Positions 7,511 through 60,460 of a DNA stretch of 64,000 nucleotides are shown piece after piece. This stretch comes from a phage. The translations under genes and the position numbers were made by a program. Location of the stretch: the NCBI GenBank assembly GCA_012365435.1, contig GCA_012365435.1_4518.1. The stretch is one strand, 5' to 3'. Under the pieces are notes generated by a model. That model saw only the letters and a program-made list of their open reading frames with translations. It did not search any database and was not told the DNA's origin. Every line of letters begins with the position of its first letter. The stretch's first letter is position 1.

Positions 7511-8143
7511 TCACAGTACGTTAGTTACAAGGGTAATGATTTCTTTAGACACATTAGGGAAGTCGATGTAAGTATATTTACCACCGATCTTAATCTTAAC
7601 ATCATTTTCAAGAGAAGTAAACAGCTTTGATTCAGTTTCTGACATGTTGTATGCAAAGATTCTAAGAGAACCATCTCGACGAATTTCAATTTGGCGAATG
7701 CCTAGAACTCGTTTAGCGAATCGAACTTCTAAGTTACTACGGTTTTCACCAATTTCTTTAACTTCAACTTTATCTTTAATATTTTCAAAAACAAAGTTTG
7801 CTAATTCATGCATTTCAGGAGTAACTCCACGTGCTTTTCTGGTGTTACGTTTCTGAAGAAGTTCTGGAGCATTTTCTTGAGCAAATAGGTCTGCAGCTTT
7901 TTGGATAATATCCATTGCTTCGCCTGTTGCTACAAGTCCATCACCGGATTTTTCGACTAAACCTTTCTTAATCAATACACCAATGTTAGAGTTAACAACC
8001 GATGCATTGTATTCTGCTTCCAGAGCTTCACGGACATTGGCAGCAGTGGTGAAGTTGTTCTTAATGATATAAACCATTATTGCAGCAGTTTTTTCATTCA
8101 GAGCGTTTTCAGAAGCTTTGATGATGTAAGTAACTTTAGACAT
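7511..8143 (-). CDS. motA: Middle-transcription activator MotA
   Basis: From MSKVTYIIKAS (ATG at 8141-8143) 210 aa, matches T4 MotA N-terminus and length; track ORF extends upstream from a probable non-ATG codon. Confidence 0.8.
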   Translation of the reverse strand: MSKVTYIIKASENALNEKTAAIMVYIIKNNFTTAANVREALEAEYNASVVNSNIGVLIKKGLVEKSGDGLVATGEAMDIIQKAADLFAQENAPELLQKRNTRKARGVTPEMHELANFVFENIKDKVEVKEIGENRSNLEVRFAKRVLGIRQIEIRRDGSLRIFAYNMSETESKLFTSLENDVKIKIGGKYTYIDFPNVSKEIITLVTNVL

Positions 8144-8182
8144 TTTATTTCTCCAATTTGGTTGTTTTGTTTTGATAGGTCT

Positions 8183-8210
8183 ATAATATCGTGTTTGAAG
8201 CAAAAGTAAA
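8183..8210 (-). promoter_or_regulatory. Early promoter upstream of motA
   Basis: - strand GTTTACT, 16-17 nt, TATTAT, about 40 nt upstream of motA ATG. Confidence 0.5.
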
Positions 8211-8220
8211 CTGTTTTTGT

Positions 8221-8256
8221 GAGAAAAAAATGCACAAAAGGGAGCTTCGGCTCCCT
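8221..8256 (-). terminator. Terminator downstream of gene 52
   Basis: Perfect 7-bp stem agggagc/gctccct with 4-nt loop followed on - strand by U-rich tract. Confidence 0.55.
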
Positions 8257-8331
8257 AATCATGTTTGTCCAACCAATACAGCCAAATCACTAGTGCAGCT
8301 ATTGCACCGAGAAATCCTAAGGCTAGGGCAC

Positions 8332-9657
8332 TCAAAGTGCCTCCAAGTCTTTAGTGTACTCTGTCACAACATCAGTAGACTTCCAATACTCATTTTCTTC
8401 TTTCTTAGCTTTAGCTTCTTCTGCTAGTTTACGTGCTTCGTCGGAAGTGATATGGAAGATGTTAAGACCCACCAGTTTATCGACATGTTCTTTGTACATT
8501 TCGATTTGTGCTAGCTCTTCAGTCAAAGCTTTACGAGTCTTGCCCTGAATCACGATTTCACCGTTGATAACTTTTTTGATGAAGTGTGCCTTAGCAAAAG
8601 CCAGTTTAAATGCTTTTTCAGATTCAAGGATTTTGTTGTCAATACGTTTCTGAACGTAAGTCTTACGGACTTCAACAAAATCTTTGATTAAGTCTACTAC
8701 ATTATCGTAGACCGCTAATTTACCCTTTTCATTAATCACTGTGATGTTTTGTGAACGACGTTCGATGAGACTAAAATCTTTCATGATTTTTTCATGACGT
8801 AGCTCTTCGTCATCTGGAAGCGAGTACTCTTTACGGAACTTCACCTTAAACCCAAAGCCGTGTTCACCACAATCATCTTCCCATGAGATTAGACCTTTGT
8901 CTTCCAACGGGTCAAGAACTTTACTCACATACGTTTCACGGTCGAATTTATATGGGATTTCAGTTATCTGCATTTGAGTACGAGATGTGAACTTGTATGT
9001 TCCGTGAATCTCATAACGCCCATCAACTTCATGCACTTCACCACGGAATTCCGGGAATTCAACTTTTGGCTTAATGACATTTTTACCTTGAAGAGCTTGT
9101 AATACAGCCTTTTTGACCGATTTAAAACTATGAGGCAGAATATTTGTTGCGTAACCGGTTGCAATACCAGAGACGCCATTCAAAAGAACTGTCGGAATAA
9201 TAGGAAGATAGAATTTTGGTGGAACGTGTTCTTTATCTTCATGAGCTGGAGCATATTCAGTATCTTTATATACGTTATAGAAATTTTTACTTACACGAGC
9301 AAAAATATAACGAGATGCTGCAGCTTTTTGGACTGTTCTAGAACCAAAGTTGCCTTGGCCATCTAACAGTGGATAGTTGTTGTTCCATGTGTTAGCCATC
9401 AATGCACCTGCATCTTGTGCAGAAGATTCACCATGGTGATAACCTAAATCTGCAACACCGCCTGCAATTGACGCAAGTTTATGAAATTTTTCTTTATTAC
9501 CACGAGCCAAATCTAACGCACGATGGACCACAAAACGTTGAACCGGCTTAAATCCATCAATCATGTTTGGGATTGCACGGTTTTCAACGGTGTACATCGC
9601 ATATGCTAAGGCTTCGTTATCAATAATACTTTTTAGATTACGAGAATTCAATTGCAT
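8332..9657 (-). CDS. 52: Topoisomerase II medium subunit gp52
   Basis: 441 aa, strong identity to T4 gp52 (GyrA-like breakage-reunion domain) as recalled. Confidence 0.9.
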   Translation of the reverse strand: MQLNSRNLKSIIDNEALAYAMYTVENRAIPNMIDGFKPVQRFVVHRALDLARGNKEKFHKLASIAGGVADLGYHHGESSAQDAGALMANTWNNNYPLLDGQGNFGSRTVQKAAASRYIFARVSKNFYNVYKDTEYAPAHEDKEHVPPKFYLPIIPTVLLNGVSGIATGYATNILPHSFKSVKKAVLQALQGKNVIKPKVEFPEFRGEVHEVDGRYEIHGTYKFTSRTQMQITEIPYKFDRETYVSKVLDPLEDKGLISWEDDCGEHGFGFKVKFRKEYSLPDDEELRHEKIMKDFSLIERRSQNITVINEKGKLAVYDNVVDLIKDFVEVRKTYVQKRIDNKILESEKAFKLAFAKAHFIKKVINGEIVIQGKTRKALTEELAQIEMYKEHVDKLVGLNIFHITSDEARKLAEEAKAKKEENEYWKSTDVVTEYTKDLEAL

Positions 9658-9661
9658 ATTT

Positions 9662-9802
9662 TCACCATATTAATGAACGAATATCCATTATAACATCTGA
9701 AATGAAAAGCACTACTTGGATTAGTCCAAACATCACACCGTAGTACAGAACCGTAAGCAACAGCAGGAGCCCGAAGGCTCCTGCTAAGATTTTCTTAATC
9801 AT
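9662..9802 (-). CDS. Small hydrophobic ORF (46 aa), doubtful
   Basis: ATG overlaps upstream stop (TAATG); hydrophobic; but contains a stable UUCG hairpin so may be intercistronic. Confidence 0.3.
   Translation of the reverse strand: MIKKILAGAFGLLLLLTVLYYGVMFGLIQVVLFISDVIMDIRSLIW
9762..9785 (-). other. Stable C(UUCG)G RNA hairpin, 10-bp perfect stem
   Basis: agcaggagcc-cgaa-ggctcctgct on + strand; reads UUCG loop in - strand transcript; no U-run after. Confidence 0.45.
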
Positions 9803-9948
9803 TACTCGCCTTTTAACACGTTAAGAAGAGCTAAGACCGCTAAGGTACCTTGTGATACCGCCTGTTGAAATACTGTTGTTTCGCCTGTAACTAAAGTGTT
9901 AACGAATAAAAACGACCAACACAGCAATGCAATAATCCATGCTACCAT
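9802..9948 (-). CDS. Small hydrophobic membrane protein (48 aa) in ac/stp region
   Basis: ATG with GAGGT RBS; hydrophobic MVAWIIALLCWSFLF; between 52 and ndd. Confidence 0.4.
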   Translation of the reverse strand: MVAWIIALLCWSFLFVNTLVTGETTVFQQAVSQGTLAVLALLNVLKGE

Positions 9949-9959
9949 TTTAATTACCT

Positions 9960-9993
9960 CAAAAATAAATTAAAGGCCTAACTTAATAGGCCT
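9960..9993 (-). terminator. Terminator downstream of ndd
   Basis: 7-bp stem aggccta/taggcct, 6-nt loop, followed on - strand by UUAAUUUAUUUUU. Confidence 0.5.
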
Positions 9994-10000
9994 GTATAAA

Positions 10001-10447
10001 TTAGTAACTCTGCAGAATAAATTTGAAATTATCGGCCAGAAGACGGTTCATTTCAGTGAGTGTTTGATATTCTGATGTATGGTTGCGAGTGAACGCTAGA
10101 GCCAATTGTCCTTTACCATAACCAGTGGTCAGAGGTTTCATGTTCTTAGCTGAAACAAAGATTACATCATATTCAATATTATTAGTGCCCATGGTACGGG
10201 CGAGTTGTGAACGGCCTTGACGAATGTGAGAAAGAATTGCATCCAACCCTTGTTTAGAACGTTGACGTCCTACAAAGAATCGTGCTGCTACTTGTCGCCA
10301 GTCAGATGAACCTTTAACGAAGAAGTAAAAACCTTCACGAGAACGAAACTCTTTAGAAACTTCAGAACCGTATTCGCCATTACGAACTACTGCAACAACT
10401 TCACCGCCAACTGCCAGAAGGTCTTTACGAGTTAAATATTTGGACAT
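10001..10447 (-). CDS. ndd: Nucleoid disruption protein Ndd
   Basis: 148 aa; long blocks identical to T4 Ndd as recalled ([56 protein letters not shown]). Confidence 0.75.
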
Positions 10448-10523
10448 GCTAATTTCCTCAATTGATTAATGTTTTTGTAATCCATGAGAGCATTATACTC
10501 TGCTCTCAAGAGTTTGTACAATT

Positions 10524-10724
10524 TTATTCGGCTATATCAGAACGTTCAAAAAGCTCTTCAACAGTTAAACATTCAGTGTCATCTTCAATAAAGAATCGAG
10601 TCCAACACGTTGGGGCGATACAGTTATGAGTTTGTCCGGCGATAGAAGCTACACGAATAAGCTGCTGGCCGTTATTCAGAACAAATTTTTCACCAATTTC
10701 AACATCTTTAAAAAGCTTAGCCAT
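10524..10724 (-). CDS. Hypothetical protein (66 aa)
   Basis: ORF track; own early promoter upstream. Confidence 0.45.
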   Translation of the reverse strand: MAKLFKDVEIGEKFVLNNGQQLIRVASIAGQTHNCIAPTCWTRFFIEDDTECLTVEELFERSDIAE

Positions 10725-10752
10725 TTTGTGTTCCTCATGTTTCAGTAGGACT

Positions 10753-10781
10753 ACTATACCATAATCCTACCGTGTTGTAAA
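10753..10781 (-). promoter_or_regulatory. Early promoter
   Basis: - strand GTTTACA, 17 nt, TGG-TATAGT; sits in palindrome taggacta...taatccta. Confidence 0.55.
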
Positions 10782-10974
10782 CAATTAAATTACATTAAAA
10801 TATGTTAAAGCCAACCATGTTCCAGTGAACGAACATGCAATGTAAAAACCAGTATCACAAATTGTTTTTAGTACAATAAGAAGTGCATTTTTCATAAGTA
10901 CCTCAACACAATTGAAAATATTATACAAATCATTGGGATACTAAGCAACCATATTCCTATCCACATTTTAGAGC

Positions 10975-11238
10975 TCATATCTCAACTTCCGCGAGTTCCA
11001 TATATCCTTTGTTGATAACCTCTTTAAGGTCTTTAGAAAGAATAACATTAAAATGGTCGTTCATATGCCCGTTAACCAGACGAGTTATTTCGGCTTCAGA
11101 TGACATATAAGGCACGTCCGAGTCCCAATGAGATAGACCTAAATGAGTATAAATCATCCCTTCGTCATCTGCAGTGTTGTACATTGAAACAAACTCACCA
11201 GTCACTTTATGTTTTGCGTAGAAAAATTTAAATTTCAT
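10975..11238 (-). CDS. Hypothetical protein (87 aa)
   Basis: ORF track; own early promoter upstream. Confidence 0.5.
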   Translation of the reverse strand: MKFKFFYAKHKVTGEFVSMYNTADDEGMIYTHLGLSHWDSDVPYMSSEAEITRLVNGHMNDHFNVILSKDLKEVINKGYMELAEVEI

Positions 11239-11264
11239 GATGTTATCCTCTTTTAGATAGGACT

Positions 11265-11293
11265 ACTATATCATAGTCCTACTTAGTTGTAAA
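11265..11293 (-). promoter_or_regulatory. Early promoter
   Basis: - strand GTTTACA, 17 nt, TATAGT; -10 embedded in perfect 8-bp inverted repeat taggacta/tagtccta. Confidence 0.55.
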
Positions 11294-11306
11294 CACTTTT
11301 ATGAAA

Positions 11307-11864
11307 TTAAAGATGAAGATACCACCCGTTGTAGTTGCTCTTGCGGACGATTTTCTTTAGGTCTTCATGGTCTCCAACGAACTTTATAGAATAAGAGAAG
11401 ACGTCAGGTGAGGTTTCTTTGACATTCAATATAATAATACAGTCAGCGACTCGATGATTAAGGAAGGGCCCTATATTGATTCCATTACCACCCGGATAAT
11501 CACCACTGTATCCTGTGGTAACCGAAATCCATTTCGAATCCATCTGATGGGTCTTTACTTCTACGCGTAGACCACAGTACTTAGGATGAGCTAAAACGTC
11601 CCATGCATACGTGTACGGGTCTTCTACGTCTTCATTACCTTTATTAACATATCCGTCTAGCCAATTTGCTACTACATACTCTGCAAAGACTGCAACCTTA
11701 CAACGTCGAACAACGTCTTCTTTTATTTGACCTGGATCTTGTTTCAACGAGTACCGAGCAGTATCAGCGATCTTAACCTTCATTTCGCTAGTCAAAAACT
11801 CATTCGACAGGATAAATGTCGGAAGATTCTTCAGCCTCAACAGTCCCAAGTTCGTCTTTACCAT
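11307..11864 (-). CDS. denB: Endonuclease IV DenB-like
   Basis: Start at internal ATG (MVKTNLGLL) gives 185 aa, same as T4 DenB; position between ndd and rIIB. Confidence 0.5.
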   Translation of the reverse strand: MVKTNLGLLRLKNLPTFILSNEFLTSEMKVKIADTARYSLKQDPGQIKEDVVRRCKVAVFAEYVVANWLDGYVNKGNEDVEDPYTYAWDVLAHPKYCGLRVEVKTHQMDSKWISVTTGYSGDYPGGNGINIGPFLNHRVADCIIILNVKETSPDVFSYSIKFVGDHEDLKKIVRKSNYNGWYLHL

Positions 11865-12087
11865 AGATACCTCTGATGTGTAGTTCGCCAAAATAAATGC
11901 GGTCTCCTTCTTCAAGATATTCTGCATCTACAGGCGGGATTTCAATAACAACTTCGTCGCATTCTAACCAGCCGTAATGTGCATCGCCAGGATGTTTTAC
12001 CAATTTAGCACAATAGACTGATTTACACTTATGATGACCACGAAGATTAGCAATTTTGGATTCTGATACGTCAAATGGATGAATCAT
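11800..12087 (-). CDS. Hypothetical protein (95 aa)
   Basis: ORF track; overlaps denB start region in another frame. Confidence 0.4.
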   Translation of the reverse strand: MIHPFDVSESKIANLRGHHKCKSVYCAKLVKHPGDAHYGWLECDEVVIEIPPVDAEYLEEGDRIYFGELHIRGIYGKDELGTVEAEESSDIYPVE

Positions 12088-12097
12088 AATTACCCCT

Positions 12098-12123
12098 AAA
12101 GAAAAAAGGGGACCGAAGTCCCC
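12098..12123 (-). terminator. Rho-independent terminator after rIIB, C(UUCG)G hairpin plus U-run
   Basis: ggggac-cgaa-gtcccc on + strand, UUCG loop in - transcript, followed by UUUUUUCUUU. Confidence 0.6.
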
Positions 12124-12128
12124 AATTA

Positions 12129-13076
12129 TTATTCTGCAAATAATTCAGTAACGTCTGAAATTACTTCATAACGACAAGTACGCATCTTAGCATCACCGTA
12201 GTCAACCGGGATGGATACAACATCACGTGGATGAACTTTAACTTTCACAACTTTATCTGAGCTTGAACCAAAGTGGCGAATATAAGATTTAGCACAAACG
12301 TGGAGACCGCGAGAACAGGTTTGAGTATCATCGTCGTTAACTCGAGTACGAGGCATTGAAACAACTTTACCTGGGGAGTTATCAAATGTACCACTATAGC
12401 AGTCTAAATAGTCCTTACGAACTACTTTCCACGCATAGAAATGACCATCTTCAGTGATTTCAATATCGTTTGCAACCAAGAAGTCGAATAAACGTTGTAC
12501 AGCTTTTTCGCTCGGGTTTTCTAACAGGTTTTCAAGGAACGGCAGGTAGAATTTAAAGTCTTCGCCTTTTTCCATGGAATCAATAATACGGTTAACCAGC
12601 CCTGAACGAATCTCTATACCTTGATAAAATAAACTACCACCTTCAATAGTAACATTACCGTCAACAAACTTACTAATAGCTTTCTTGATGTTAATAAGTT
12701 CGACAGCTTTACTAAGGTTTCCTGCGACCAGATTAGCTTTAATTTCTTCAAAATTTGCATGACTTGATGGGGTCGCATTGTATGCTACGCGTCCTTCAAT
12801 GATTGAAATAAATTTAGATGACGCGTTCCATACGATTTCTGGACGATGACCTGTAATAATAGGTTCATCATTTTCTGGAACTTCTTCGATTACATAAGAG
12901 GCATCGTTTGCTTCAGGGACAACGCCTTCAGCTTTAAAATTCTTAACAATCTTACGAAGAGTATCTGTTGAAATGTCGAAGTAATCGGCAATTTCTTTAC
13001 GAGTCCATTTGCCTGATTCAACCAGGCCGTAAGCTTCTAACTGTTCTTCTTGGGACAAGCATTTGATATTGTACAT
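12129..13076 (-). CDS. rIIB: rIIB protein
   Basis: 315 aa; extensive identity to T4 rIIB as recalled. Confidence 0.85.
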   Translation of the reverse strand: MYNIKCLSQEEQLEAYGLVESGKWTRKEIADYFDISTDTLRKIVKNFKAEGVVPEANDASYVIEEVPENDEPIITGHRPEIVWNASSKFISIIEGRVAYNATPSSHANFEEIKANLVAGNLSKAVELINIKKAISKFVDGNVTIEGGSLFYQGIEIRSGLVNRIIDSMEKGEDFKFYLPFLENLLENPSEKAVQRLFDFLVANDIEITEDGHFYAWKVVRKDYLDCYSGTFDNSPGKVVSMPRTRVNDDDTQTCSRGLHVCAKSYIRHFGSSSDKVVKVKVHPRDVVSIPVDYGDAKMRTCRYEVISDVTELFAE

Positions 13077-13085
13077 AATGTTTCC

Positions 13086-15299
13086 TTATTTGGCCGCTTC
13101 CACGGCCTTCATGAATTTAACGATTTGAGCGACCTGTTCTTTGGAAAGAGTACCACGTCGTCCCATGTATTCTGACACAATATGATAATTGGTTTCAAAT
13201 TCAATAACCATTTTATCATCATTATCGTAAGCATTATCTTTAAGCTTATCGAAAATTTTAGCACACAATTCTAACTTCCTGTTCAGGTCTGTATTAGTAG
13301 CACCTGCGAATCGATTCCATCCCCAGCGATTATTTACTGTTGAGAGTTTTGCAAAGTCTTTACTGATTTCTTTGTTCTTAGAGCTAAAATATTTACTAAG
13401 GAAATTAAGCTCTTCATTACGAGTAATATGATTCAAATAAGGCTGTGCTCTACGACTTGGTGATACATACTCATCATAATCTACTTTATCGATTAGCATA
13501 ATATAGTCATTAATTGATTTTTCAAACAAACATTCTACTTCACCGAGTTTACGAACTTTCTTAGCAATCTGTGGACGAACTACAGTGAACTCTTTAATAC
13601 CTGACAAATCAGCAATACGAGTCAAGAAATTAGAGTCATAGTTCAACCAACCTTTATCTGCGTCAAGACATTCAGCGTTAGAACGATTACGAATTACAGC
13701 ATAACCTTGAATCTCATCAGCTTTACTGGCCGGAATAAAAAGGTCTTCTGATACCCAAACATCTTTTTCGTTCTTGAAGAAACGATGGGCACTCGGTGAT
13801 TTAGGACGAGGCTGCGATGAACGTTCTTTAACTTCAATCCACGGTTTAACCAATGCAAGAATTTCAGAGGTCTTATAAAATTTAAGGCTATCACCAGCGA
13901 AAATAACCTTTAATCGTTCCAGAAGTTTCATTGCAACTTCATCTTCCGGGTTAATGAATAATACGCTACTACCATATCCGGAAGGAACCTTATCAACGAG
14001 TGTTGATGCATCTGTGGAAGTCAAAGCATCGTTCAGAGCACGCATCATTGGTACGCGTCCTTTCACATCATCAATAACAATATCAATATGCTTACGACCA
14101 ATACCTAGCAGGCTATTAATTGAAATAGTTGAAGACGAGCTTCCGCTTTCACGAATACGACGAAGTCGTGGGTCTGAAACGATATCATATACAACACCAA
14201 GGTTGCACCATTCTGGTCCCATTTTAAAACGTTTGTACAACTCAGAATAAGTTAGTTGTTCTTTAGAATATTTCAGTGATTCAATATTAGAACCGGCTTT
14301 TTCCATGTATTTACGAGCAGAGTAACCAAGAGAATCGATTTCACGGAATACATGACGTGGATATTCACAATCAATCCATTTCTTAGAATCTTCAGCAAAT
14401 AATTTTGCATCAATTTCTGCAACGCGTTTATGGATATTTGCTACTGTACGTTTATCAAATGACAATGCTTCACGAGACGGGGCTACATCTAGTTCACCCA
14501 TAGGGAATTTAATATAAGCTGTAGTGCATCGCGTCATCATCCATGTTTGTTCTTTAATAACACTTCCGATTGGATATACAATACCACCATAAACAGCCAT
14601 GATATTACCACGTTCACCCCATGGAGCTTCCTTGGCCAAATATACATCGTCAAATTCAGGAAAGTATTTAATATCTTTAACACCGCGAACTTCTGCAATA
14701 TCACCTAGAGGACGCATAACATATGCAATTTCAGATGCGAACTTTTCAAAATCTTCTGGGTTAACAGGCACAACTACTTCAACGCCGGTACGGTCATCAG
14801 GGCCCATCTTATCTACAAAGGTTGGCTTAATCTGTGGACCGCTGTCATCTTGGTAGATTACGTAACCACGAACTTCACCATTGTGATAAGACGTAAGGTT
14901 AAACGTATCGGTATATGCTAGTGGAGCTTTAGAGCCGAGTCCGAATCCACCAATGAAATCGTTACTCGATGTTTTAGTTGAAGCAAAATATGAGTTATAG
15001 ATTCCTGGCTCTTCGTCATTACCTCGAATGGTGAAATCACTCATACCAGGACCAAAGTCTCGAACTACAAAACGTGGGTCTAAACGACCTGGAGCCTGAA
15101 CAATAAACTTATCAGTGCAACCATTAAGAATTTGCCCATCGATACAGTTTGTGATTAATTCACGTACACAAGCCAGTTCTTTGTTTGTATAAAGGTCATT
15201 AGACAAAATCTTATAAACTTTGCTATTGCCTTGAATAGTGAATGCTGTGCTCTTACCGCCTGAACCAATAATCGTTTCTTTAGCCGTTTCAATAATCAT
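13086..15299 (-). CDS. rIIA: rIIA protein
   Basis: 737 aa; extensive identity to T4 rIIA (LYTNK...ELITN.ID, PGRLDPRFV.RDFGPGMSDF) as recalled. Confidence 0.9.
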   Translation of the reverse strand: MIIETAKETIIGSGGKSTAFTIQGNSKVYKILSNDLYTNKELACVRELITNCIDGQILNGCTDKFIVQAPGRLDPRFVVRDFGPGMSDFTIRGNDEEPGIYNSYFASTKTSSNDFIGGFGLGSKAPLAYTDTFNLTSYHNGEVRGYVIYQDDSGPQIKPTFVDKMGPDDRTGVEVVVPVNPEDFEKFASEIAYVMRPLGDIAEVRGVKDIKYFPEFDDVYLAKEAPWGERGNIMAVYGGIVYPIGSVIKEQTWMMTRCTTAYIKFPMGELDVAPSREALSFDKRTVANIHKRVAEIDAKLFAEDSKKWIDCEYPRHVFREIDSLGYSARKYMEKAGSNIESLKYSKEQLTYSELYKRFKMGPEWCNLGVVYDIVSDPRLRRIRESGSSSSTISINSLLGIGRKHIDIVIDDVKGRVPMMRALNDALTSTDASTLVDKVPSGYGSSVLFINPEDEVAMKLLERLKVIFAGDSLKFYKTSEILALVKPWIEVKERSSQPRPKSPSAHRFFKNEKDVWVSEDLFIPASKADEIQGYAVIRNRSNAECLDADKGWLNYDSNFLTRIADLSGIKEFTVVRPQIAKKVRKLGEVECLFEKSINDYIMLIDKVDYDEYVSPSRRAQPYLNHITRNEELNFLSKYFSSKNKEISKDFAKLSTVNNRWGWNRFAGATNTDLNRKLELCAKIFDKLKDNAYDNDDKMVIEFETNYHIVSEYMGRRGTLSKEQVAQIVKFMKAVEAAK

Positions 15300-37260: not shown

Positions 37261-37809
37261 TTAACGAGCCCATTTAATGATTTCTGTAATCAAATAATTA
37301 CGTTCGCTTGCATTAAATCCTATAACTTTGTTAGCACCATCATGATTAAGTAATTGATACGTTTGGATTTTGTTATGAATTGCAAACTCTTCAAAATATG
37401 AAATGACTGTATTAAAACCGAATGAAGACAAAGTAATAAGGTCGTCTTCAAAACTTTCAGTCATTTCGTTACGTGTTAAAATAATTGTGAACACATCATG
37501 GTTTTGGCAAAGACGAACATAATCCTGTTCATAAACATCAAGAACCGAGTCCGCATCTTGTCGAATACGTCCATAAACCCAGTTACTAATATATCCACGG
37601 TCTAACAGATAAATCTTAGTAGGGTCTAAATAATTCAACATCGTTTCGAAACAACCAACTTCATTTCGAGACTTAACATCGAAACGTCCATCAACTGTTC
37701 GTTTAGGGAAATCAATCTTTACATATCTTTCACTAATTTCCATTATGTCATTAATGAAAGTTGTTTTACCGGCATTATCCGGGCCATCTACTAAAATAAT
37801 TTTAGCCAT
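37261..37809 (-). CDS. P-loop kinase, thymidylate/cytidylate kinase-like
   Basis: 182 aa; Walker A VDGPDNAGKTT; LLDRGY resembles DRY lid motif of NMP kinases; sits in the T4 beta-gt slot. Confidence 0.55.
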   Translation of the reverse strand: MAKIILVDGPDNAGKTTFINDIMEISERYVKIDFPKRTVDGRFDVKSRNEVGCFETMLNYLDPTKIYLLDRGYISNWVYGRIRQDADSVLDVYEQDYVRLCQNHDVFTIILTRNEMTESFEDDLITLSSFGFNTVISYFEEFAIHNKIQTYQLLNHDGANKVIGFNASERNYLITEIIKWAR

Positions 37810-37810
37810 T

Positions 37811-38710
37811 TTATTCCTCGATTACGACATCTTCGTATTTAGGTATATTATACGGCGAAGAAATTAAAGCGTTAAAGTAGATGAACTCACCAAGACCTGG
37901 ATGGAATACTTCTTCAGGATTTTCGAAATATTGAATCTTCGGACGTCCTTTAAGAATTTGATAGTACTCAGTTTTAGTTGGTTTAAAAATTCGAATCAGC
38001 GCTTCTTCAGGATACTTATTTCTGTCAAAGCTATTATTTGGATCGGTTATATAAAGCGGTTGACCTAATTGAATTGCGCATTCAACCACTTGTTCAAAAC
38101 GATAACACGGGTCACTAATTCGAAATGGATGAAAAATACCATCTAGATGAATAGGAGCCAAATCACCTACAAGACGCTGCATGACGGAAGGACGTATAAC
38201 TTTCTGCGTTACGATAATCTTATTACCATCGGCACCTGCGTTAACCAGCACTTCCTTTTGACGTTCATTCAACACAGTAGTTTGAAGTGAACGATTAACA
38301 GACAACATGTCGGTTTTTAAGAATTCATCAATATAAAAACGTGGTTTATTAGGGTCTGCAGTGATATTGAAATTGAATTCTACGTCAAAAGCGCCATCAT
38401 ATCCAGTGATATCTGTGATTAGAAAATCACAATCATAATAAGCAATTAATGAATCAACCACAAATTCATTTTCAGACCAGAAATATTTACGAGTGTTATA
38501 CGCGTTATCTTTATACCATAATGGAACAAACTTAAATTCCGGGAAAAGACGTTCACATTCTTTAATATCAGATGCATTACGTGGATATGTAATCACATCA
38601 CCTGGATTAGCACGGTGCAAATGAAGTTGGAAGTTGCCATCCTTAAGGATAGCATACTGTCCAGTTTCATAAGACCGCATACTCAAGATTGGTACGCGGA
38701 AAATAGCCAT
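37811..38710 (-). CDS. Hypothetical protein (299 aa) in the T4 beta-gt slot
   Basis: ORF track; no recognisable similarity to T4 beta-glucosyltransferase. Confidence 0.5.
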   Translation of the reverse strand: MAIFRVPILSMRSYETGQYAILKDGNFQLHLHRANPGDVITYPRNASDIKECERLFPEFKFVPLWYKDNAYNTRKYFWSENEFVVDSLIAYYDCDFLITDITGYDGAFDVEFNFNITADPNKPRFYIDEFLKTDMLSVNRSLQTTVLNERQKEVLVNAGADGNKIIVTQKVIRPSVMQRLVGDLAPIHLDGIFHPFRISDPCYRFEQVVECAIQLGQPLYITDPNNSFDRNKYPEEALIRIFKPTKTEYYQILKGRPKIQYFENPEEVFHPGLGEFIYFNALISSPYNIPKYEDVVIEE

Positions 38711-39426
38711 TAGTCAAGGAATCCTTTAACATAATCAAAATCACGTTCAAACACATGGGCACTTACCATGGTATGAGTATAATCACCAACTTCTACGCCG
38801 CATTCGTTAGCGATATAATGAAGTAATTTTCCTTGGAGATAAAAATCCAACTGCATAACAACAGCACAGTTCTGAGAACGCATATGACAGTGGGTATAAA
38901 GCTTACCATCGCGAATATAATAAGTCACTGAGTCAGTACATGGATATTCAAGTGTTTCGTCCGAATCAAGCAAAGCCTGATCAGAACTTTCTAGAATTTG
39001 GAACACAACTCTTCGAGAGTTAGGTTTCTCTTTAAGTTCTTTTAGAAGAGCTGGTAATTGGGCCGCAATGCGAGGACCATAGAAAGTGTTGAAGTTCGCC
39101 GGCAAAGCGTCTGATTTAGGTTTAGAAATAAATTTAGCGACATTAGGATATGCCTTAAACGCTTCTTCTGCATCAGTACCACCAGAAATCATAAACTTCC
39201 AGAAGTCTTCGGCATATTCATAAGAGATGCGGTTAATACGTGGGTCGGTCATTTTGAATGATGATGGATTGTCAACAACTACTGTCATGGACCTGATTTC
39301 ATTACAACGTCCAATACGAGAATCAGTTACGAATTCAGGATTTTCTAAAATTTCACGATTGACTGCTTTAAATGCGGCTTGAAAATCTGCGGCTTTGATA
39401 TATTTCATTGTGTTATGTTTTCCCAT
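38710..39426 (-). CDS. 42: dCMP hydroxymethylase gp42 (thymidylate-synthase fold)
   Basis: 238 aa; block YPCTDSVTYYIRDGKLY...MRSQNCAVVMQLDF parallels FMCTNTVQYLIRDKK...MRSNDVVFGF of T4 gp42 as recalled; GAGGT RBS. Confidence 0.65.
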   Translation of the reverse strand: MGKHNTMKYIKAADFQAAFKAVNREILENPEFVTDSRIGRCNEIRSMTVVVDNPSSFKMTDPRINRISYEYAEDFWKFMISGGTDAEEAFKAYPNVAKFISKPKSDALPANFNTFYGPRIAAQLPALLKELKEKPNSRRVVFQILESSDQALLDSDETLEYPCTDSVTYYIRDGKLYTHCHMRSQNCAVVMQLDFYLQGKLLHYIANECGVEVGDYTHTMVSAHVFERDFDYVKGFLD

Positions 39427-39468
39427 GTTTACCTCAATACAATTTATTATATACTCAATTCGTAAAGC

Positions 39469-39708
39469 TTATTTGAATTTCTTGGCAATGTTGATATAAC
39501 GTAAAGCTTCAGAATCTATACTTCCAAGAACACTATGAAGGAATGCATCAGTGTAGTATTCCAATTGAACAGGTTCTTTAATCACTTTAGCCGCTTTGGT
39601 TTCAAACAGGCCCATAAGGGCCTTTTTAAGAATTTGTTCGTTAGTGTTCAGTTTTATAGTCAAAATCTCTTCATTAAGTTGGTGGTTAAAAGTTTTTCTA
39701 GAAATCAT
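39469..39708 (-). CDS. Hypothetical protein (79 aa), not Imm-like
   Basis: ORF track; hydrophilic, unlike membrane protein Imm that occupies this slot in T4. Confidence 0.45.
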   Translation of the reverse strand: MISRKTFNHQLNEEILTIKLNTNEQILKKALMGLFETKAAKVIKEPVQLEYYTDAFLHSVLGSIDSEALRYINIAKKFK

Positions 39709-40865
39709 TCCGGGTACCTCAAAGCGTCATCAGAGTTAGTTATATCAATAATAGATATAGAGTTTTCTGATAACCCATTTTTAGATAACTGACGTTTATA
39801 ATATCTTTCACAATATGTACACGTCGTCCCGCAGATTTCATTAGCACAATCGAAATCTGGATGTCTGAACCACCTTTTTTCTAAAAAACCGTCTAACAAT
39901 GAGGTTTCAATATTTACTGTATGTGAAAACTCAGTCTCATTTTCAAGAGTGAAAATAGTCTCTAAAGGCTTCCACAGTTCTAACAAATTACCTTCAAACT
40001 TTTCAGAAGCGTATGCTTCAAGAACTTTCAAAATGTAGTCTGTGCTACCTGTACGTCCTGAAACTTTGAATTGAGTGATACCAATATCATTATAAAGTTT
40101 CAAATCTTGAGGACGAACAAAACGAGTTCTCAGCCAGTTAAATGGGTCTGTATCACGAGCTTTAATACAGTGCTGCATAGGATATCCATTTAAGGATTTA
40201 GCATCATCAGCGGTAACATCAGTACTATGGAAAATATAGCAAGAGTCACGATAGCTACAATGTGTTGTATACCCTTTACCAGCATTAGAACAGAACTCAT
40301 TTACAAGAACTTCAAATATTATATTGTTCTTATTGCAAAACTCTGCTGCACGCTTCAGGAAAGAAACTGAACGGTTCTTATGAATTCCGCAACAGACTTT
40401 TTTGATGTTATATTGGTCGTGCAAGTATTTGATTTGAGTTACAGCATCAACATGTAGAATTGTTGAAACTTCAATCTCAATGTCTTTATTGACTTCACGA
40501 ACAATTTCCATAACAACAGGGTTAGCGATAGTAATACGCCATACGCCTATTGACCAAAGATACTGAACATAATCCTGAATAGCTTTCTTCTTCCACTCAA
40601 CTAGTTCTCTTTTTGAACCAGGATTTATCGTGTTGAGTGTATAGTTAAAGCAAATACCTAATTCGTTACAACGTTTAACGTAGTCTTCTAACATCTTTTT
40701 GTCAACGTCAGGAAGCCTAAAATCAGGTCTGGCTGCTACAAAAGCCATTTCTCTTGTAGAGCCGTATACTTCGTTTATCAAGCTATTAGGATAAGTTTTA
40801 TTGAGCTCTACGATTTTATCAAGAAGAGCTAAATCAAAATTCGTTCCGATTTTAAAAGTATTCAT
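39705..40865 (-). CDS. U32-family-like Cys-rich enzyme (putative Fe-S dependent; function unknown)
   Basis: 386 aa; blocks NPVVMEIVRE and EIEVSTILHVDAV resemble DPGLIMLVRE / PIHLSVQANAV of U32 proteins; Cys clusters VCCG..FCS..HCS..SC and C-x4-C-x3-C-x2-C. Confidence 0.5.
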   Translation of the reverse strand: MNTFKIGTNFDLALLDKIVELNKTYPNSLINEVYGSTREMAFVAARPDFRLPDVDKKMLEDYVKRCNELGICFNYTLNTINPGSKRELVEWKKKAIQDYVQYLWSIGVWRITIANPVVMEIVREVNKDIEIEVSTILHVDAVTQIKYLHDQYNIKKVCCGIHKNRSVSFLKRAAEFCNKNNIIFEVLVNEFCSNAGKGYTTHCSYRDSCYIFHSTDVTADDAKSLNGYPMQHCIKARDTDPFNWLRTRFVRPQDLKLYNDIGITQFKVSGRTGSTDYILKVLEAYASEKFEGNLLELWKPLETIFTLENETEFSHTVNIETSLLDGFLEKRWFRHPDFDCANEICGTTCTYCERYYKRQLSKNGLSENSISIIDITNSDDALRYPE

Positions 40866-40921
40866 TTTTTTGCATCTCGCGTTAATTGATGCGATGGTTT
40901 TTGCAGGTCTTACTTAAATTA

Positions 40922-41323
40922 TTATAGATTCGGTTTATATGATTTAAATGTTTCGAATTCGCCTTTATTCATAAGAGCTTTGAATTCGTCAGGACGCATA
41001 GCTTTGTCGTCGATAATCCAATCATATACTGGTTTATGTGTTAGCAAATTATGGTACTTCAAGCCAATGTTTGCCAAGTTCTGAATCAGACTTGGGAGAA
41101 TGTCAATTGCTATACGACCAGGACCTACTGACTTCATACCACGAGCAGTGTAAAGCGTTATGGTATGCCCTGCATCATACAGGGCATTAATGGCAGACAC
41201 CATTTCGACGTCCGGTTTGAAGTTCACGTAATCACGATTGTTATTCCACTCTGTTATACAATCATCGACATCAAAACAAAGATTAAGCATGTTTTCTACA
41301 CGGTGCATTAGATTCGTTCCCAT
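40922..41323 (-). CDS. HAD-superfamily small phosphatase (KdsC-like)
   Basis: 133 aa; HAD motif I FDVDDCIT near N-terminus; coordinates from ORF track. Confidence 0.55.
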   Translation of the reverse strand: MGTNLMHRVENMLNLCFDVDDCITEWNNNRDYVNFKPDVEMVSAINALYDAGHTITLYTARGMKSVGPGRIAIDILPSLIQNLANIGLKYHNLLTHKPVYDWIIDDKAMRPDEFKALMNKGEFETFKSYKPNL

Positions 41324-43174: not shown

Positions 43175-43810
43175 TCATTGTTCGCCTCGTAACATGGCAC
43201 CTAGTGCACCGCCTGGGTGGAACTTAAGGAAGTCATTAGAGGTAAATCCACGTTCAGACGAAAGGTTGATAGCGAACGTATCGATAAGCGCTAACAACAA
43301 TGTAGTGGACATGGTCGGAGCCAGAGAATTCTCATCAACCTCTACCGCGATGCCTGTACAGAAAGAGTAATCAAAAAGGGCTTCATTTTCTTGCGGAATG
43401 TCCGGGTTACAATGCAACAGAATCTGTTTGACATTTGGACGAATCATTTTAAGATGCTTAGCCACGCCTATCATTTCTTCAGTTTTACCAGAACGACTAA
43501 TATGAATCAACACATCATTAGGCGCAATGAATCCTGCATCACCGTGAGAATAATGCCCGGTGTTCAAGTACATACTTGGGATACCGAGTGAAGCAAATGT
43601 CTCAGAAGCTTTAGTTGCAATATTAGCATTCTTACCAACACCTGTAATAATTACTCGGCTTTCATAATTACTAAGTCCAGGGCGTCGAAGAGTTTCTAGA
43701 ATAGCATTATAACGAGCAGGGTTTTGACTAATTACTTTGGCCATAGCGGCCAAAGAAGAAGCTTGTTTTATAATTGCGTCAATAGCGATAGTAATAGGAG
43801 TAGTTTTCAT
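43175..43810 (-). CDS. SIS-domain sugar-phosphate isomerase, KdsD/GutQ-like (putative D-arabinose-5-phosphate isomerase)
   Basis: 211 aa; ITGVGKNANIA...ISRSGKTEE...LAPTMSTT...FHPGGALG mirrors the KdsD SIS domain motifs as recalled; no CBS domains. Confidence 0.7.
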   Translation of the reverse strand: MKTTPITIAIDAIIKQASSLAAMAKVISQNPARYNAILETLRRPGLSNYESRVIITGVGKNANIATKASETFASLGIPSMYLNTGHYSHGDAGFIAPNDVLIHISRSGKTEEMIGVAKHLKMIRPNVKQILLHCNPDIPQENEALFDYSFCTGIAVEVDENSLAPTMSTTLLLALIDTFAINLSSERGFTSNDFLKFHPGGALGAMLRGEQ

Positions 43811-58175: not shown

Positions 58176-58646
58176 TTAATCATGTTTCCACACCCCATCG
58201 GTATTTGACCAAAGTCGCTGATTATCTGATCCTCGCCACAACTTTTTGGTCGGAAGATTTTTCTCATACTTCCCATCAATAATAACATCAACATATTTAA
58301 GCATTTCTAGCTGTTTAATATCTTCAAACTTATATCCTGTCCACAACCAAATGCTTTTATTGGGATAAAGATTTTTAATAGTTTGAACTACAGAGTGAAT
58401 AACATCTCGGTTATCAGGATAGAGAGGGTCTCCTCCGGTTATAGTTAATCCTTCTATATAATCATTATTCAAACATTCAATTAATTGTTCTAGTGTCTCT
58501 CCAGTGAATGGAGCACCATTTCTAGCGTTCCATGTTGATTTATTATAACACCCTTCACATTTATGCAAACAACCTGTAACGAAAAGAACGACCCTGCAAC
58601 CAGGGCCATTAACAAAATCGCAAGGATAAAATCTATCATAATTCAT
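58176..58646 (-). CDS. nrdG: Anaerobic ribonucleotide reductase activating protein NrdG (radical SAM)
   Basis: 156 aa as T4 NrdG; CxxxCxxC cluster CLHKCEGC. Confidence 0.85.
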   Translation of the reverse strand: MNYDRFYPCDFVNGPGCRVVLFVTGCLHKCEGCYNKSTWNARNGAPFTGETLEQLIECLNNDYIEGLTITGGDPLYPDNRDVIHSVVQTIKNLYPNKSIWLWTGYKFEDIKQLEMLKYVDVIIDGKYEKNLPTKKLWRGSDNQRLWSNTDGVWKHD

Positions 58647-60460
58647 TGGTGTTTAACCCTATGCATGATTTCTTTATTTTTACCGAGATTAAATCCGCGT
58701 TCGTTCGGATTTCCCAAATAACCGCATGTCCTTCTTATAGTGTTCATCTTTTTAGGATCAGTTTCTCCACAAACTGAACAAACAAATCCGTTTTCAGTAG
58801 GAGTCATTTCATGAGTACTTCCGCATGTAAAACATTTATCTACTGGCATATTAACACCAAAATAATCTAAATGTTGTGCAGCATAATCCCACACGGCCTC
58901 AAGACCTTTTAGGTTATTTTTCATATCAGGAAGTTCAACATAAGAAATGTGACCACCTGTCGCAATGAAATGATATGGCGCTTCACGAGAAATCTTTTCA
59001 AACGGAGTAATATTTTCTTCTACTGAAACGTGGAAACTATTAGTGTACCAGCCTTTATCGGTAACATCTTTTACGCTTCCATATTTTTCTGTATCAAGTT
59101 TACAGAAACGATAACACAAGTTTTCAGCAGGAGTAGAATATAAACTAAAAGCAAATCCAGTTCTTTCGGTCCACTGTTTAAGATGAGCATTCATTTTAGT
59201 TAAAATTTCTTGCCCAATATCACGACCGACAAGAATATTCAATTCGTGAATACCAATGTATCCCAAAGACACTGAACTTCTACCGTTTTTAAATAACTCA
59301 ATTATATCGTCGTCAGGTTTAAGACGAACCCCAAATGCACCTTCTTGGTAAAGAATAGGAGCAACAGTCGCTTTAACTCCTTTTAAGGAACTAATTCTAC
59401 ACATCAAGGCTTCAAAACACAGATCCATTCGTTCATTAAATAGCTCAACAAATTTCTGTTCATTGAACTGTGTTCCAATATAAGAATCTAATGCGATACG
59501 AGGAAGATTCAGTGTTACAACACCAAGATTATTACGTCCATCAAGAATTTCATTACCAGTCGAATCTTTCCATACGCTCAAGAAACTACGGCAGCCCATT
59601 GGAGAAACCGGAACTGAAGAACCAGTAATAGCTTTATTATTCTTAACCGAAATAATGTCAGGATACATTCTTTTGCTTGCACATTCTAACGCAAGTTGTT
59701 TAATATCATAGTTTGGATCATCTTTATAAAGATTAACACCTTCTTCAACAAACATAACAAGTTTAGGAAAAATAGGAGTTATCCCATCACGACCGAGACC
59801 TTTAATCCGATTTTTCAGAATTGCCTTCTGAATCATTCGTTCAGTCCAATCGGTTCCCGTACCAAATGTAATTGTTACAAAAGGCGTTTGTCCGTTTGAA
59901 CTAAAGAGAGTATTTACTTCATATTCATAAGCTTGGAATGCATCGTATACGTCTTTTTCTGTTTTAGATTGAGCATAATTCAACGCATCAGCGATTTGCC
60001 ATTTTTCTGCATCTTCAACATGTTTAGCGTATGTACGTTTAACATAAGGAGAAAGAACTTTATCGACATTTGCAAATGTAGTTCCGCCATACTGATGTGA
60101 AGCAACTTGTGCAGTAATTTGTGCCATAATTGCAGTAGCAACACCAATCGATTTAGGCGTTTCAATTTGAGCATTGCCTAATTTAAATCCGTTCTCAAGC
60201 ATCCCCTTTAAATCGACTAAACAACAATTAGTAAACGGAAGAGCAGGAGAATAATCAATATCATGCATGTGGATAATTCCACTTTCATGCGCATTCATAA
60301 TAAAAGACGGGACCATATTTCTGGCAATGTGCTTAGACACAATACCAGCCATAAGGTCCCGTTGAGTTGGAAAAACACGAGAATCTTTATTAGCATTCTC
60401 GTTCAAAAGATCTTTATTAGTTTTATAAATTAATCCTTCAATTTCTTTTTCAATTTTCAT
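58643..60460 (-). CDS. nrdD: Anaerobic ribonucleoside-triphosphate reductase NrdD (uninterrupted)
   Basis: 605 aa; C-terminal glycyl-radical motif RTCGYLG and zinc ribbon CFTCGS...CSVCG; no intron. Confidence 0.9.
   Translation of the reverse strand: MKIEKEIEGLIYKTNKDLLNENANKDSRVFPTQRDLMAGIVSKHIARNMVPSFIMNAHESGIIHMHDIDYSPALPFTNCCLVDLKGMLENGFKLGNAQIETPKSIGVATAIMAQITAQVASHQYGGTTFANVDKVLSPYVKRTYAKHVEDAEKWQIADALNYAQSKTEKDVYDAFQAYEYEVNTLFSSNGQTPFVTITFGTGTDWTERMIQKAILKNRIKGLGRDGITPIFPKLVMFVEEGVNLYKDDPNYDIKQLALECASKRMYPDIISVKNNKAITGSSVPVSPMGCRSFLSVWKDSTGNEILDGRNNLGVVTLNLPRIALDSYIGTQFNEQKFVELFNERMDLCFEALMCRISSLKGVKATVAPILYQEGAFGVRLKPDDDIIELFKNGRSSVSLGYIGIHELNILVGRDIGQEILTKMNAHLKQWTERTGFAFSLYSTPAENLCYRFCKLDTEKYGSVKDVTDKGWYTNSFHVSVEENITPFEKISREAPYHFIATGGHISYVELPDMKNNLKGLEAVWDYAAQHLDYFGVNMPVDKCFTCGSTHEMTPTENGFVCSVCGETDPKKMNTIRRTCGYLGNPNERGFNLGKNKEIMHRVKHQ

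Follow-up and report, generated by a model that had tools for sequence, protein, structure and literature searches.

Background

The DNA of RB69-type phages carries mono- or di-arabinosylated 5-hydroxycytosine (5hoC), in which the sugar is ether-linked directly at C5 and the one or two arabinoses are themselves unmodified (PMC13326640). This pathway is pre-replicative, acts at the mononucleotide level, and includes a dCTPase as well as dNMP kinases; its 5-hydroxy-dCMP synthase is a ThyA homologue that binds flavin and takes its oxygen from O2, as 18O2 labelling established, and a gp46:47-type glycosyltransferase has been proposed as the first arabinosyltransferase on 5hoC (PMC13326640). According to PMC13326640, He et al. 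confirmed the synthase finding in phage HY126. Arabinosyl-5hoC has also been demonstrated in the DNA of Acinetobacter phage DLP3. Hydroxylation of pyrimidines at C5 is also carried out by U32-family proteins, namely RlhA (5-hydroxycytidine, ho5C2501, in 23S rRNA) and TrhP (5-hydroxyuridine, ho5U34, in tRNA), which need prephenate and Fe-S clusters, and TrhP has an O2-dependent counterpart, TrhO. In a third U32 system, UbiU/UbiV, prephenate is the oxygen donor. Here we analyze a U32-family gene in a 64,000-nucleotide stretch of phage DNA (contig GCA_012365435.1_4518.1 of assembly GCA_012365435.1; hereafter the window), which belongs to an RB69-like Mosigvirus, and propose that its product is probably an O2-independent, prephenate-dependent cytosine C5 hydroxylase that works in parallel to the ThyA-type enzyme.

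Since the 5hoC hydroxyl has been traced to O2 via a flavin-dependent ThyA homologue (two 2026 studies), the question arises how enteric phages make this base without O2 in the anoxic gut. The existence of the U32 gene is not new, as hundreds of genomes carry an annotation of it and it has already been counted among the genes of the 5hoC cluster. The RB69 homologue, gp50 (RB69p050), appears only in a table in PMC13326640, while RlhA and TrhP are mentioned in the discussion of that paper as unrelated RNA hydroxylation routes with no tie to gp50. As the preliminary description of the window had supposed, no function for a U32 gene in phage DNA modification was found in the searchable literature, coverage of which is incomplete; nor were the function proposed here, the linkage to chorismate mutase and DAHP synthase, or a distribution complementary to that of the ThyA-type hydroxylase found there.

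A U32-family protein with conserved cysteines

The 386-residue protein matches PF01136 (Peptidase U32) over residues 94 to 286 with 42.2 bits against a gathering cutoff of 22.4 (E 7e-11, Pfam search), and it matches the TIM-barrel fold of 5D88, the only solved U32 member; the PDB holds no RlhA, TrhP, or UbiU structure, and a sequence search there found no relatives. By Pfam score and fold, it is a genuine U32-family member, which bears out the family assignment first made from sequence blocks. Both cysteine clusters are also present as first described, i.e., VCCG (C158/C159), FCS (C192), HCS (C203), and SC (C209), followed by C340-x4-C345-x3-C349-x2-C352. Across 121 homologues, down to 46% identity, nine cysteines (C158, C192, C203, C209, C233, C340, C345, C349, and C352) are invariant and C177 is kept in 118, while C159 of the VCCG motif is not conserved. 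The phage family thus has ten conserved cysteines, with conservation well above chance, and even in 125 remoter representatives C192, C203, C233, and the four C-terminal cysteines are still almost universal.

In the alignment with UbiU, RlhA, and TrhP, the first three Fe-S ligands have their counterparts in three of these residues, C203, C209, and C233. C203 and C209 fall on C169 and C176 of both RlhA and UbiU, and C233 falls on UbiU C193, RlhA C192, and TrhP C193. In UbiU, the [4Fe-4S] ligands are C169, C176, C193, and C232, and a C176A change abolishes function; in RlhA, C169 and C176 are essential. The K-[IV]-x-G-R motif at the end of the barrel is present as FKVSGR, aligned to FKIEGR in RlhA, LKIEGR in TrhP, and VKIEGR in UbiU, and its K267 and R271 are invariant, the 125 distant representatives included.

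The phage protein is a U32 member, yet no orthologue of RlhA, TrhP, or UbiU, because it is without DUF3656 and U32 C-terminal domains and scores below the cutoff of the UbiU model. Of the two profiles named for comparison in the preliminary description, Peptidase_U32 was matched and the C-terminal domain was not: neither DUF3656 nor Peptidase_U32_C gave a Pfam match in the protein at E ≤ 1. The UbiU equivalog NF047963 (NCBIfam) reached 18.5 bits against a cutoff of 440. Orthology to RlhA or TrhP is further ruled out by length (386 versus 450-650 residues) and by a different C-terminal four-cysteine motif. When the phage family profile was aligned to the four E. coli U32 proteins with hhalign, RlhA was the best match (83% probability, E 9e-6), and the alignments to the single sequences of UbiU and TrhP, at just 5-7% probability, were uninformative. 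A profile search of 1.84 billion representatives returned just 1,656 relatives, of which 445 reached E ≤ 1e-30; the phage U32 proteins form a small, distinct clade of about 450 clusters at 50% identity. The protein is also under strong constraint: the window and Thanatos-2 share 82% identity in U32 as against 69% in the ThyA-like protein.

As a separate observation, the C-terminal cluster ends in three cysteines (residues 345-352, DNA about 39810-39833) that read C-G-T-T-C-T-Y-C, i.e., C-x3-C-x-aromatic-C, which is the spacing of the canonical radical-SAM cluster motif, here at the C-terminus of a U32 barrel. This cluster could mark a second Fe-S site, possibly of SAM type or for electron transfer.

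Linkage to chorismate mutase

A CM_2 (AroQ) chorismate mutase (CM) gene adjoins the U32 gene or lies one gene off in Kanagawavirus, Winklervirus, the Shewanella phage Thanatos, Klebsiella phages, Mosugukvirus, and Tegunavirus, with Pfam matches of E 1e-8 to 1e-11 and an intact catalytic residue pattern. CM is present in 51 phage records, and all those listed have it inside the U32/ThyA interval; in Thanatos-2 the U32 and CM genes are kept together though relocated away from the ThyA-like gene. Among 38 divergent uncultured loci (see below), 11 have a CM homologue near U32; a jumbo-phage group shows the gene order U32-CM-glycosyltransferase-AfhE; and a DAHP-synthase-CM fusion lies one HAD-phosphatase gene from U32 in three loci (L049, L052, and L053). 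Such recurrent linkage of U32 to CM and to the fusion indirectly suggests that the phage protein needs prephenate.

These fusions, which have the CM part at the C-terminus and lie in a 5hoC-type glycosylation cluster (L052:7302-8357, L053:8332-9387, and L049:8411-9433; also L050:9-971), have their nearest named cellular relatives in Bacteroidota at 43-46% identity, and a phage-encoded entry enzyme of the shikimate pathway is unusual per se. A separate candidate for CM, the 79-residue open reading frame (ORF) that follows U32 in the window and is annotated as CM in relatives, was rejected: it has no CM_2 or other Pfam match at E ≤ 10 and reaches 0.2% probability in hhalign against phage CM profiles. 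Its family is separate from CM, and both coexist in PM2 and Yersinia phages.

Distribution in cultured and uncultured phages

Metagenomic and IMG/VR contigs, with lengths of 127-294 kb in many cases, yielded U32 homologues of 40-58% identity, and gene content around U32 was counted in 38 divergent loci and on 32 divergent IMG/VR viral contigs. Near U32, the 38 loci carry a gp46:47-type glycosyltransferase (phrog_3891) in 24 cases, an AfhE-like enzyme in 16, an arabinose-5-phosphate (Ara5P) isomerase in 9, and a thymidylate-kinase-like kinase in 8; within about 6 kb of U32 on the 32 viral contigs, the glycosyltransferase is found in 22, the AfhE-like enzyme in 16, and the isomerase in 9. MazG-like, dUTPase-family, and dCMP-deaminase genes recur around U32 as well, and in several uncultured loci the glycosyltransferase gene overlaps the U32 start, the spot that is held by the ThyA-type enzyme in T4-like phages. 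A ThyA of the 5-hydroxy-dCMP-synthase type was found within 10 kb of U32 on none of the 32 contigs, and the sole ThyA found near a divergent U32 (locus L039) is a canonical thymidylate synthase with D169/N177. A scan designed for falsification, based at the contig level on short peptide patterns, identified 5-hydroxy-dCMP synthases on 44 contigs, none among the 32; the synthase contigs and the U32 set overlap only in 14 enterobacterial T4-like genomes. Comparison of these loci suggests non-orthologous displacement, with U32 in place of the ThyA-type hydroxylase in uncultured phages. U32 accompanies both arabinose-type donor genes (Ara5P isomerase and AfhE) and galactofuranose-type ones (UGM with or without an epimerase), and because two sugar-donor gene sets occur with it, its association is with the base and not with any one sugar.

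Among cultured phages, 374 records contain the ThyA-type enzyme, and 57 of these are Acinetobacter phages and 20 are Rhizobium phages. The 222 records with U32, none below 80% identity, come without exception from phages of Enterobacterales or Shewanella. Where the host is a strict aerobe (Acinetobacter or Rhizobium), only the ThyA-type enzyme is present, and Acinetobacter phage Berthold carries the 5hoC cluster with neither U32 nor CM. The claim that U32-only phages have anaerobic hosts was considered and dropped, as the DAHP-synthase-CM fusion points to Bacteroidota, which span aerobes and anaerobes.

Several further features were observed in the divergent loci. A radical-SAM/SPASM gene recurs a few genes from U32 on megaphage-like and bacterial-like contigs (L005:1-249, L019:1-628, L021:4972-6000, and L006:12160-13185), followed by a glycosyltransferase-like or phrog_3891 protein. 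Locus L006 (ENA contig LEMO22-1 scaffold_150, 8001-14360), on a bacterial-looking contig (GH43 with dockerin, MarR, and Glu-Cys ligase), has two U32 paralogues surrounded by a 5'(3')-deoxyribonucleotidase, a deoxynucleoside kinase, a PnuC-type transporter, the radical-SAM/SPASM gene, and a nucleoside 2-deoxyribosyltransferase, and could be a cellular deoxynucleoside-modification cluster. In megaphage-like loci L005:7447-9086 and L008:7504-9083 (one contig is 466 kb), the gene just ahead of U32 encodes a dCMP deaminase and, in L005, overlaps the U32 start by 4 nucleotides, with UDG-PolIII-alpha and thymidylate-kinase genes nearby; the substrate in these phages could be dUMP, not dCMP, giving 5-hydroxyuracil. 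Lastly, an unannotated family of ~200-residue proteins, often in two tandem copies, lies ~4 kb downstream of U32 in 15 of the 38 loci (L060:15986-17172, L055:15996-17193, and 13 others) and has no Pfam match.

Proposed function and alternative explanations

We propose that the phage protein is a [4Fe-4S]-type U32 enzyme that would hydroxylate C5 of a cytosine nucleotide, most likely dCMP, with prephenate and not O2 as oxygen donor, and would thereby supply 5-hydroxy-dCMP when its O2- and flavin-dependent ThyA-type neighbor cannot work. The downstream steps would be those published, i.e., phosphorylation of 5-hydroxy-dCMP by a phage kinase, incorporation of the base, and transfer of arabinose from UDP-arabinofuranose by the gp46:47-type transferase together with others. 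U32 would complete a dual aerobic/anaerobic pathway in phages of facultative hosts and serve as the sole hydroxylase of many uncultured phages, while a phage CM or DAHP-synthase-CM fusion would raise the prephenate supply. We infer substrate, prephenate dependence, Fe-S cluster, and oxygen independence from family and context: RlhA, TrhP, and UbiU/V perform such chemistry, with RlhA, the best profile match, making 5-hydroxycytidine, the linkage to CM and its fusion fits prephenate as the donor, and on the 32 contigs U32 sits with homologues of the 5hoC glycosylation genes, with no ThyA-type hydroxylase found within 10 kb. An anaerobic role is suggested because NrdD and NrdG are encoded in the window while the ThyA-type enzyme needs O2, and because phages of strict aerobes have the ThyA-type enzyme only. 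The preliminary description had considered an extra oxidative step on the base or the sugar; the published RB69 base is without a further oxidized feature on either, so that such a step has nothing to explain, and the same C5 hydroxylation by an O2-independent, prephenate-dependent route, an alternative rather than an additional step, fits better.

We acknowledge that several points weigh against this proposal. The position of the fourth canonical Fe-S ligand (RlhA C196, TrhP C197) is R237 in the phage protein, where C192, C158, and C177 are the candidates for that role. No CM was found anywhere in the 64-kb window, and Mosigviruses, which have lost it, would therefore rely on host prephenate; by a rough estimate (~6x10^4 cytosines per genome and 100-200 progeny), full cytosine replacement would take ~10^7 prephenate molecules per cell, about the whole aromatic amino-acid flux of the cell, which is feedback-inhibited in rich medium. 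U32 is missing from E. coli Dhakavirus JS98 despite its 5hoC cluster, CM is missing from one Klebsiella phage with U32, and some Klebsiella phages are without U32 or without CM, so that the U32 module is optional even in enteric phages. Uncultured contigs were covered only ±10 kb around U32, the contig-level ThyA scan rests on short peptide patterns, and the host clue for U32-only phages is limited to Bacteroidota, aerobes and anaerobes alike. Finally, no biochemical or genetic test of this protein was found in the accessible literature, and the sole published label of RB69 gp50 is a different one, "sugar or heterocycle reductase" (PMC13326640).

That label, which derives from fold hits only (Lee et al., PMC13326640), leads to another explanation, in which the protein belongs to the same pathway as a redox or tailoring enzyme acting on the sugar or sugar nucleotide, or as a heterocycle reductase, and does not hydroxylate cytosine. 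The gene does sit among UDP-arabinose genes, and according to an AEM 2026 paper, the sugar genes of Mosigvirus include an "epimerase." However, Acinetobacter and Dhakavirus phages have the arabinosyl-5hoC cluster without U32, with the modified base shown in DLP3, the RB69 product is plain arabinose with no further oxidized or reduced feature, two different sugar-donor gene sets co-occur with U32, no U32 enzyme with a sugar substrate is known, and the recurrent linkage to CM and the DAHP-synthase-CM fusion would be left unexplained, all of which make a sugar-tailoring role unlikely. Hydroxylation of host or phage tRNA or rRNA (ho5U or ho5C) to tune translation, with an incidental position in the cluster, would agree with the RNA substrates of the characterized pyrimidine-hydroxylating U32 enzymes and with RlhA as the best match. 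We regard it as quite improbable, given the lack of a DUF3656 or Peptidase_U32_C match, a U32 distribution that complements that of the ThyA-type hydroxylase, and a persistent linkage in unrelated lineages, often with overlapping frames, to the 5hoC glycosyltransferase, nucleotide kinases, dCMP deaminase, and MazG/dUTPase-family genes.

Cytosine might also be hydroxylated after replication, on the DNA itself, which is a variant of the proposed hydroxylase function and not its opposite. The RNA-acting relatives do modify polymers, but the known pathway is pre-replicative on mononucleotides, with dCTPase and dNMP kinases, nucleotide-pool enzymes adjoin U32 in uncultured loci, and a Pfam search of the protein recognized no nucleic-acid-binding domain, so we give this variant only a small chance. 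Database labels such as "peptidase," "putative protease," and "collagenase protein" would make the protein a true collagenase-type peptidase, for instance with a target protein of the host or the phage. Such labels go back to the name of the family, U32 proteolysis has no known catalytic mechanism, the conserved features are Fe-S-type cysteines, and the context is nucleotide and sugar-nucleotide metabolism throughout; a peptidase is thus hardly credible.

The hydroxylase proposal has consequences beyond this locus. Chances appear about even that the phage U32 clade represents the first O2-independent hydroxylases for a DNA precursor, that CM and DAHP-synthase-CM enzymes fuel hypermodification, that many uncultured U32-only jumbo phages build glycosylated 5hoC genomes by U32 alone, and that enteric T4-like phages keep both routes. 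In enteric phages with an anaerobic ribonucleotide reductase, the U32 gene offers a concrete, testable answer to how 5hoC could be synthesized in anoxia. If the proposal is true, prephenate-dependent U32 hydroxylation would reach beyond RNA and quinones to DNA precursors, i.e., a new substrate class and a new role, and shikimate-pathway genes in phage genomes would gain a first rationale. U32 together with a gp46:47-type transferase would also serve as a marker for 5hoC-type genomes in uncultured jumbo phages that are without the ThyA signature now used, and there would be a bearing on phage therapy and engineering in gut-like anoxia.

Gene neighborhood in the window

The U32 gene belongs to a DNA-modification module, as first described, and stands between the ThyA-like gene and sugar-nucleotide genes (Table 1). 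The position had been recognized correctly, but the label of "hmC synthase" (hmC, 5-hydroxymethylcytosine) given to the ThyA-like neighbor was wrong: its product retains the catalytic C146 and has the N169/D177 signature of a 5-hydroxy-dCMP synthase, in a numbering based on an E. coli ThyA reference fragment with residues that agree with PMC13326640. The module is not one for glycosylated hmC; the DNA of RB69-like Mosigviruses carries arabinosylated 5hoC (PMC13326640).

Table 1. Features of the U32 region and of the anaerobic ribonucleotide reductase genes in the window
Feature	Position	Strand	Evidence
Thymidylate-kinase-like nucleotide kinase, RB69 gp45 type	37261-37809	-	phrog_761; PMC13326640 table
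gp46:47-type glycosyltransferase	37811-38710	-	phrog_3891, E 3e-156
ThyA-homologous 5-hydroxy-dCMP synthase, RB69 gp48 type	38710-39426	-	Thymidylat_synt 56.9 bits; 98.7% identity to RB69 ORF048c
ORF049-like protein, 79 residues, no Cys	39469-39708	-	Start overlaps U32 stop by 4 nucleotides (ATGA)
U32-family Fe-S-type protein, 386 residues	39705-40865	-	ORF, PF01136, and 5D88 fold match; homologue of RB69 ORF050c/gp50
Sigma-70-like promoter match TTTAAA-16 nucleotides-TATAAT, weak lead	40921-40948	-	~55 nucleotides upstream of U32 start
HAD-family phosphatase, RB69 gp51/AfhF type	40922-41323	-	TIGR01689 E 4e-13; phrog_1238
Bifunctional nucleotidyltransferase/kinase, RB69 gp52:53/AfhE type, intact, 561 residues	41308-42993	-	NTP_transferase and kinase-like Pfam; phrog_4098
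Arabinose-5-phosphate isomerase, RB69 gp55 type	43175-43810	-	phrog_5670, E 4e-116
NrdD activase NrdG	58176-58646	-	Pfam Fer4_12 and Radical_SAM
Anaerobic class III ribonucleotide reductase NrdD	58643-60460	-	Pfam NRDD E 3.5e-171 and Gly_radical

Because of their ATGA overlap, the ORF049-like frame and U32 look translationally coupled, and ORF049-like homologues come after the U32 gene in Mosigvirus, Tegunavirus, and Mosugukvirus. The neighbors fit the published UDP-arabinofuranose pathway, in which the AfhF/gp51-type phosphatase converts Araf-1,5-P2 to Araf-1-P and the AfhE-type nucleotidyltransferase/kinase makes UDP-arabinofuranose (PMC13326640). The AfhF-type phosphatase is widely called "phosphoheptose isomerase," a label from PHROG 1238, while NCBIfam places it with capsule-biosynthesis phosphatases, and the label looks like a propagated misannotation. 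The AfhE-type gene has no coding sequence annotated in the ATK47 RefSeq record (NC_055708.1; locus L001, 8814-10679), only "repeat_region" features, and in RB69 it was split into ORF052c/053c through a sequencing error (PMC13326640).

With NrdD and its activase NrdG, the phage is equipped for replication without O2, where the O2-dependent hydroxylase cannot act; NrdAB, the presumed aerobic half, and NrdDG would themselves form an aerobic/anaerobic pair in this phage, like the pair proposed for the hydroxylases. Promoter and terminator matches in the region were no more numerous than in shuffled sequence. The gap upstream of the 5-hydroxy-dCMP synthase gene (39427-39468) contains GAGTATATAATAAATTG with a perfect TATAAT, then a GAGG ribosome-binding site, and the two hydroxylase genes may therefore have separate promoters.

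Comparison with known systems

The nearest comparison within the cluster is with the ThyA-type enzymes (RB69 gp48, DLP3 gp80, and HY126), whose product, 5-hydroxy-dCMP, is also the one proposed for U32 and which adjoin the gp46:47-type glycosyltransferase at the same position as U32 does in uncultured phages. They differ in having an unrelated fold (thymidylate synthase superfamily), in depending on flavin and O2, and in that their function is experimentally verified, whereas the role of U32 is predicted. RlhA (YdcP) shares the U32 core, and its product base, 5-hydroxycytosine, is the same as that proposed for the phage protein. The essential C169 and C176 of RlhA align with invariant phage cysteines, and both proteins have a second cysteine cluster toward the C-terminus, which in RlhA is essential. 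RlhA depends on prephenate and Fe-S clusters, as the phage protein may. In contrast, RlhA has 653 residues and DUF3656 and acts on rRNA in 50S precursors, while the phage protein is shorter, has C-x4-C-x3-C-x2-C as a distinct C-terminal motif, is encoded among deoxynucleotide and DNA-glycosylation genes, and resembles RlhA at the profile level only.

UbiU/UbiV, which function with UbiT, also belong to the U32 Fe-S proteins; their substrate is a small molecule, and prephenate has been shown to be the donor. Like the phage protein, UbiU has an Arg at the fourth cysteine position of RlhA and TrhP and uses C232 instead, and the two clusters per functional unit of UbiU/V may parallel the two cysteine clusters of the phage protein. 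The differences are that UbiU/V work as a heterodimer whose substrate is a lipid quinone precursor and that the UbiU model scores far below its cutoff on the phage protein. For the pathway as a whole, the TrhP/TrhO pair provides a likely parallel, as an O2-dependent and a prephenate-dependent U32 enzyme serve one C5 hydroxylation and the phage ThyA-type enzyme would take the part of TrhO, although the substrate there is tRNA uridine (ho5U34) and TrhO is a rhodanese, not a ThyA homologue. UbiI/H/F and UbiU/V in ubiquinone synthesis form a further aerobic/anaerobic pair to which the proposed phage pair can be likened.

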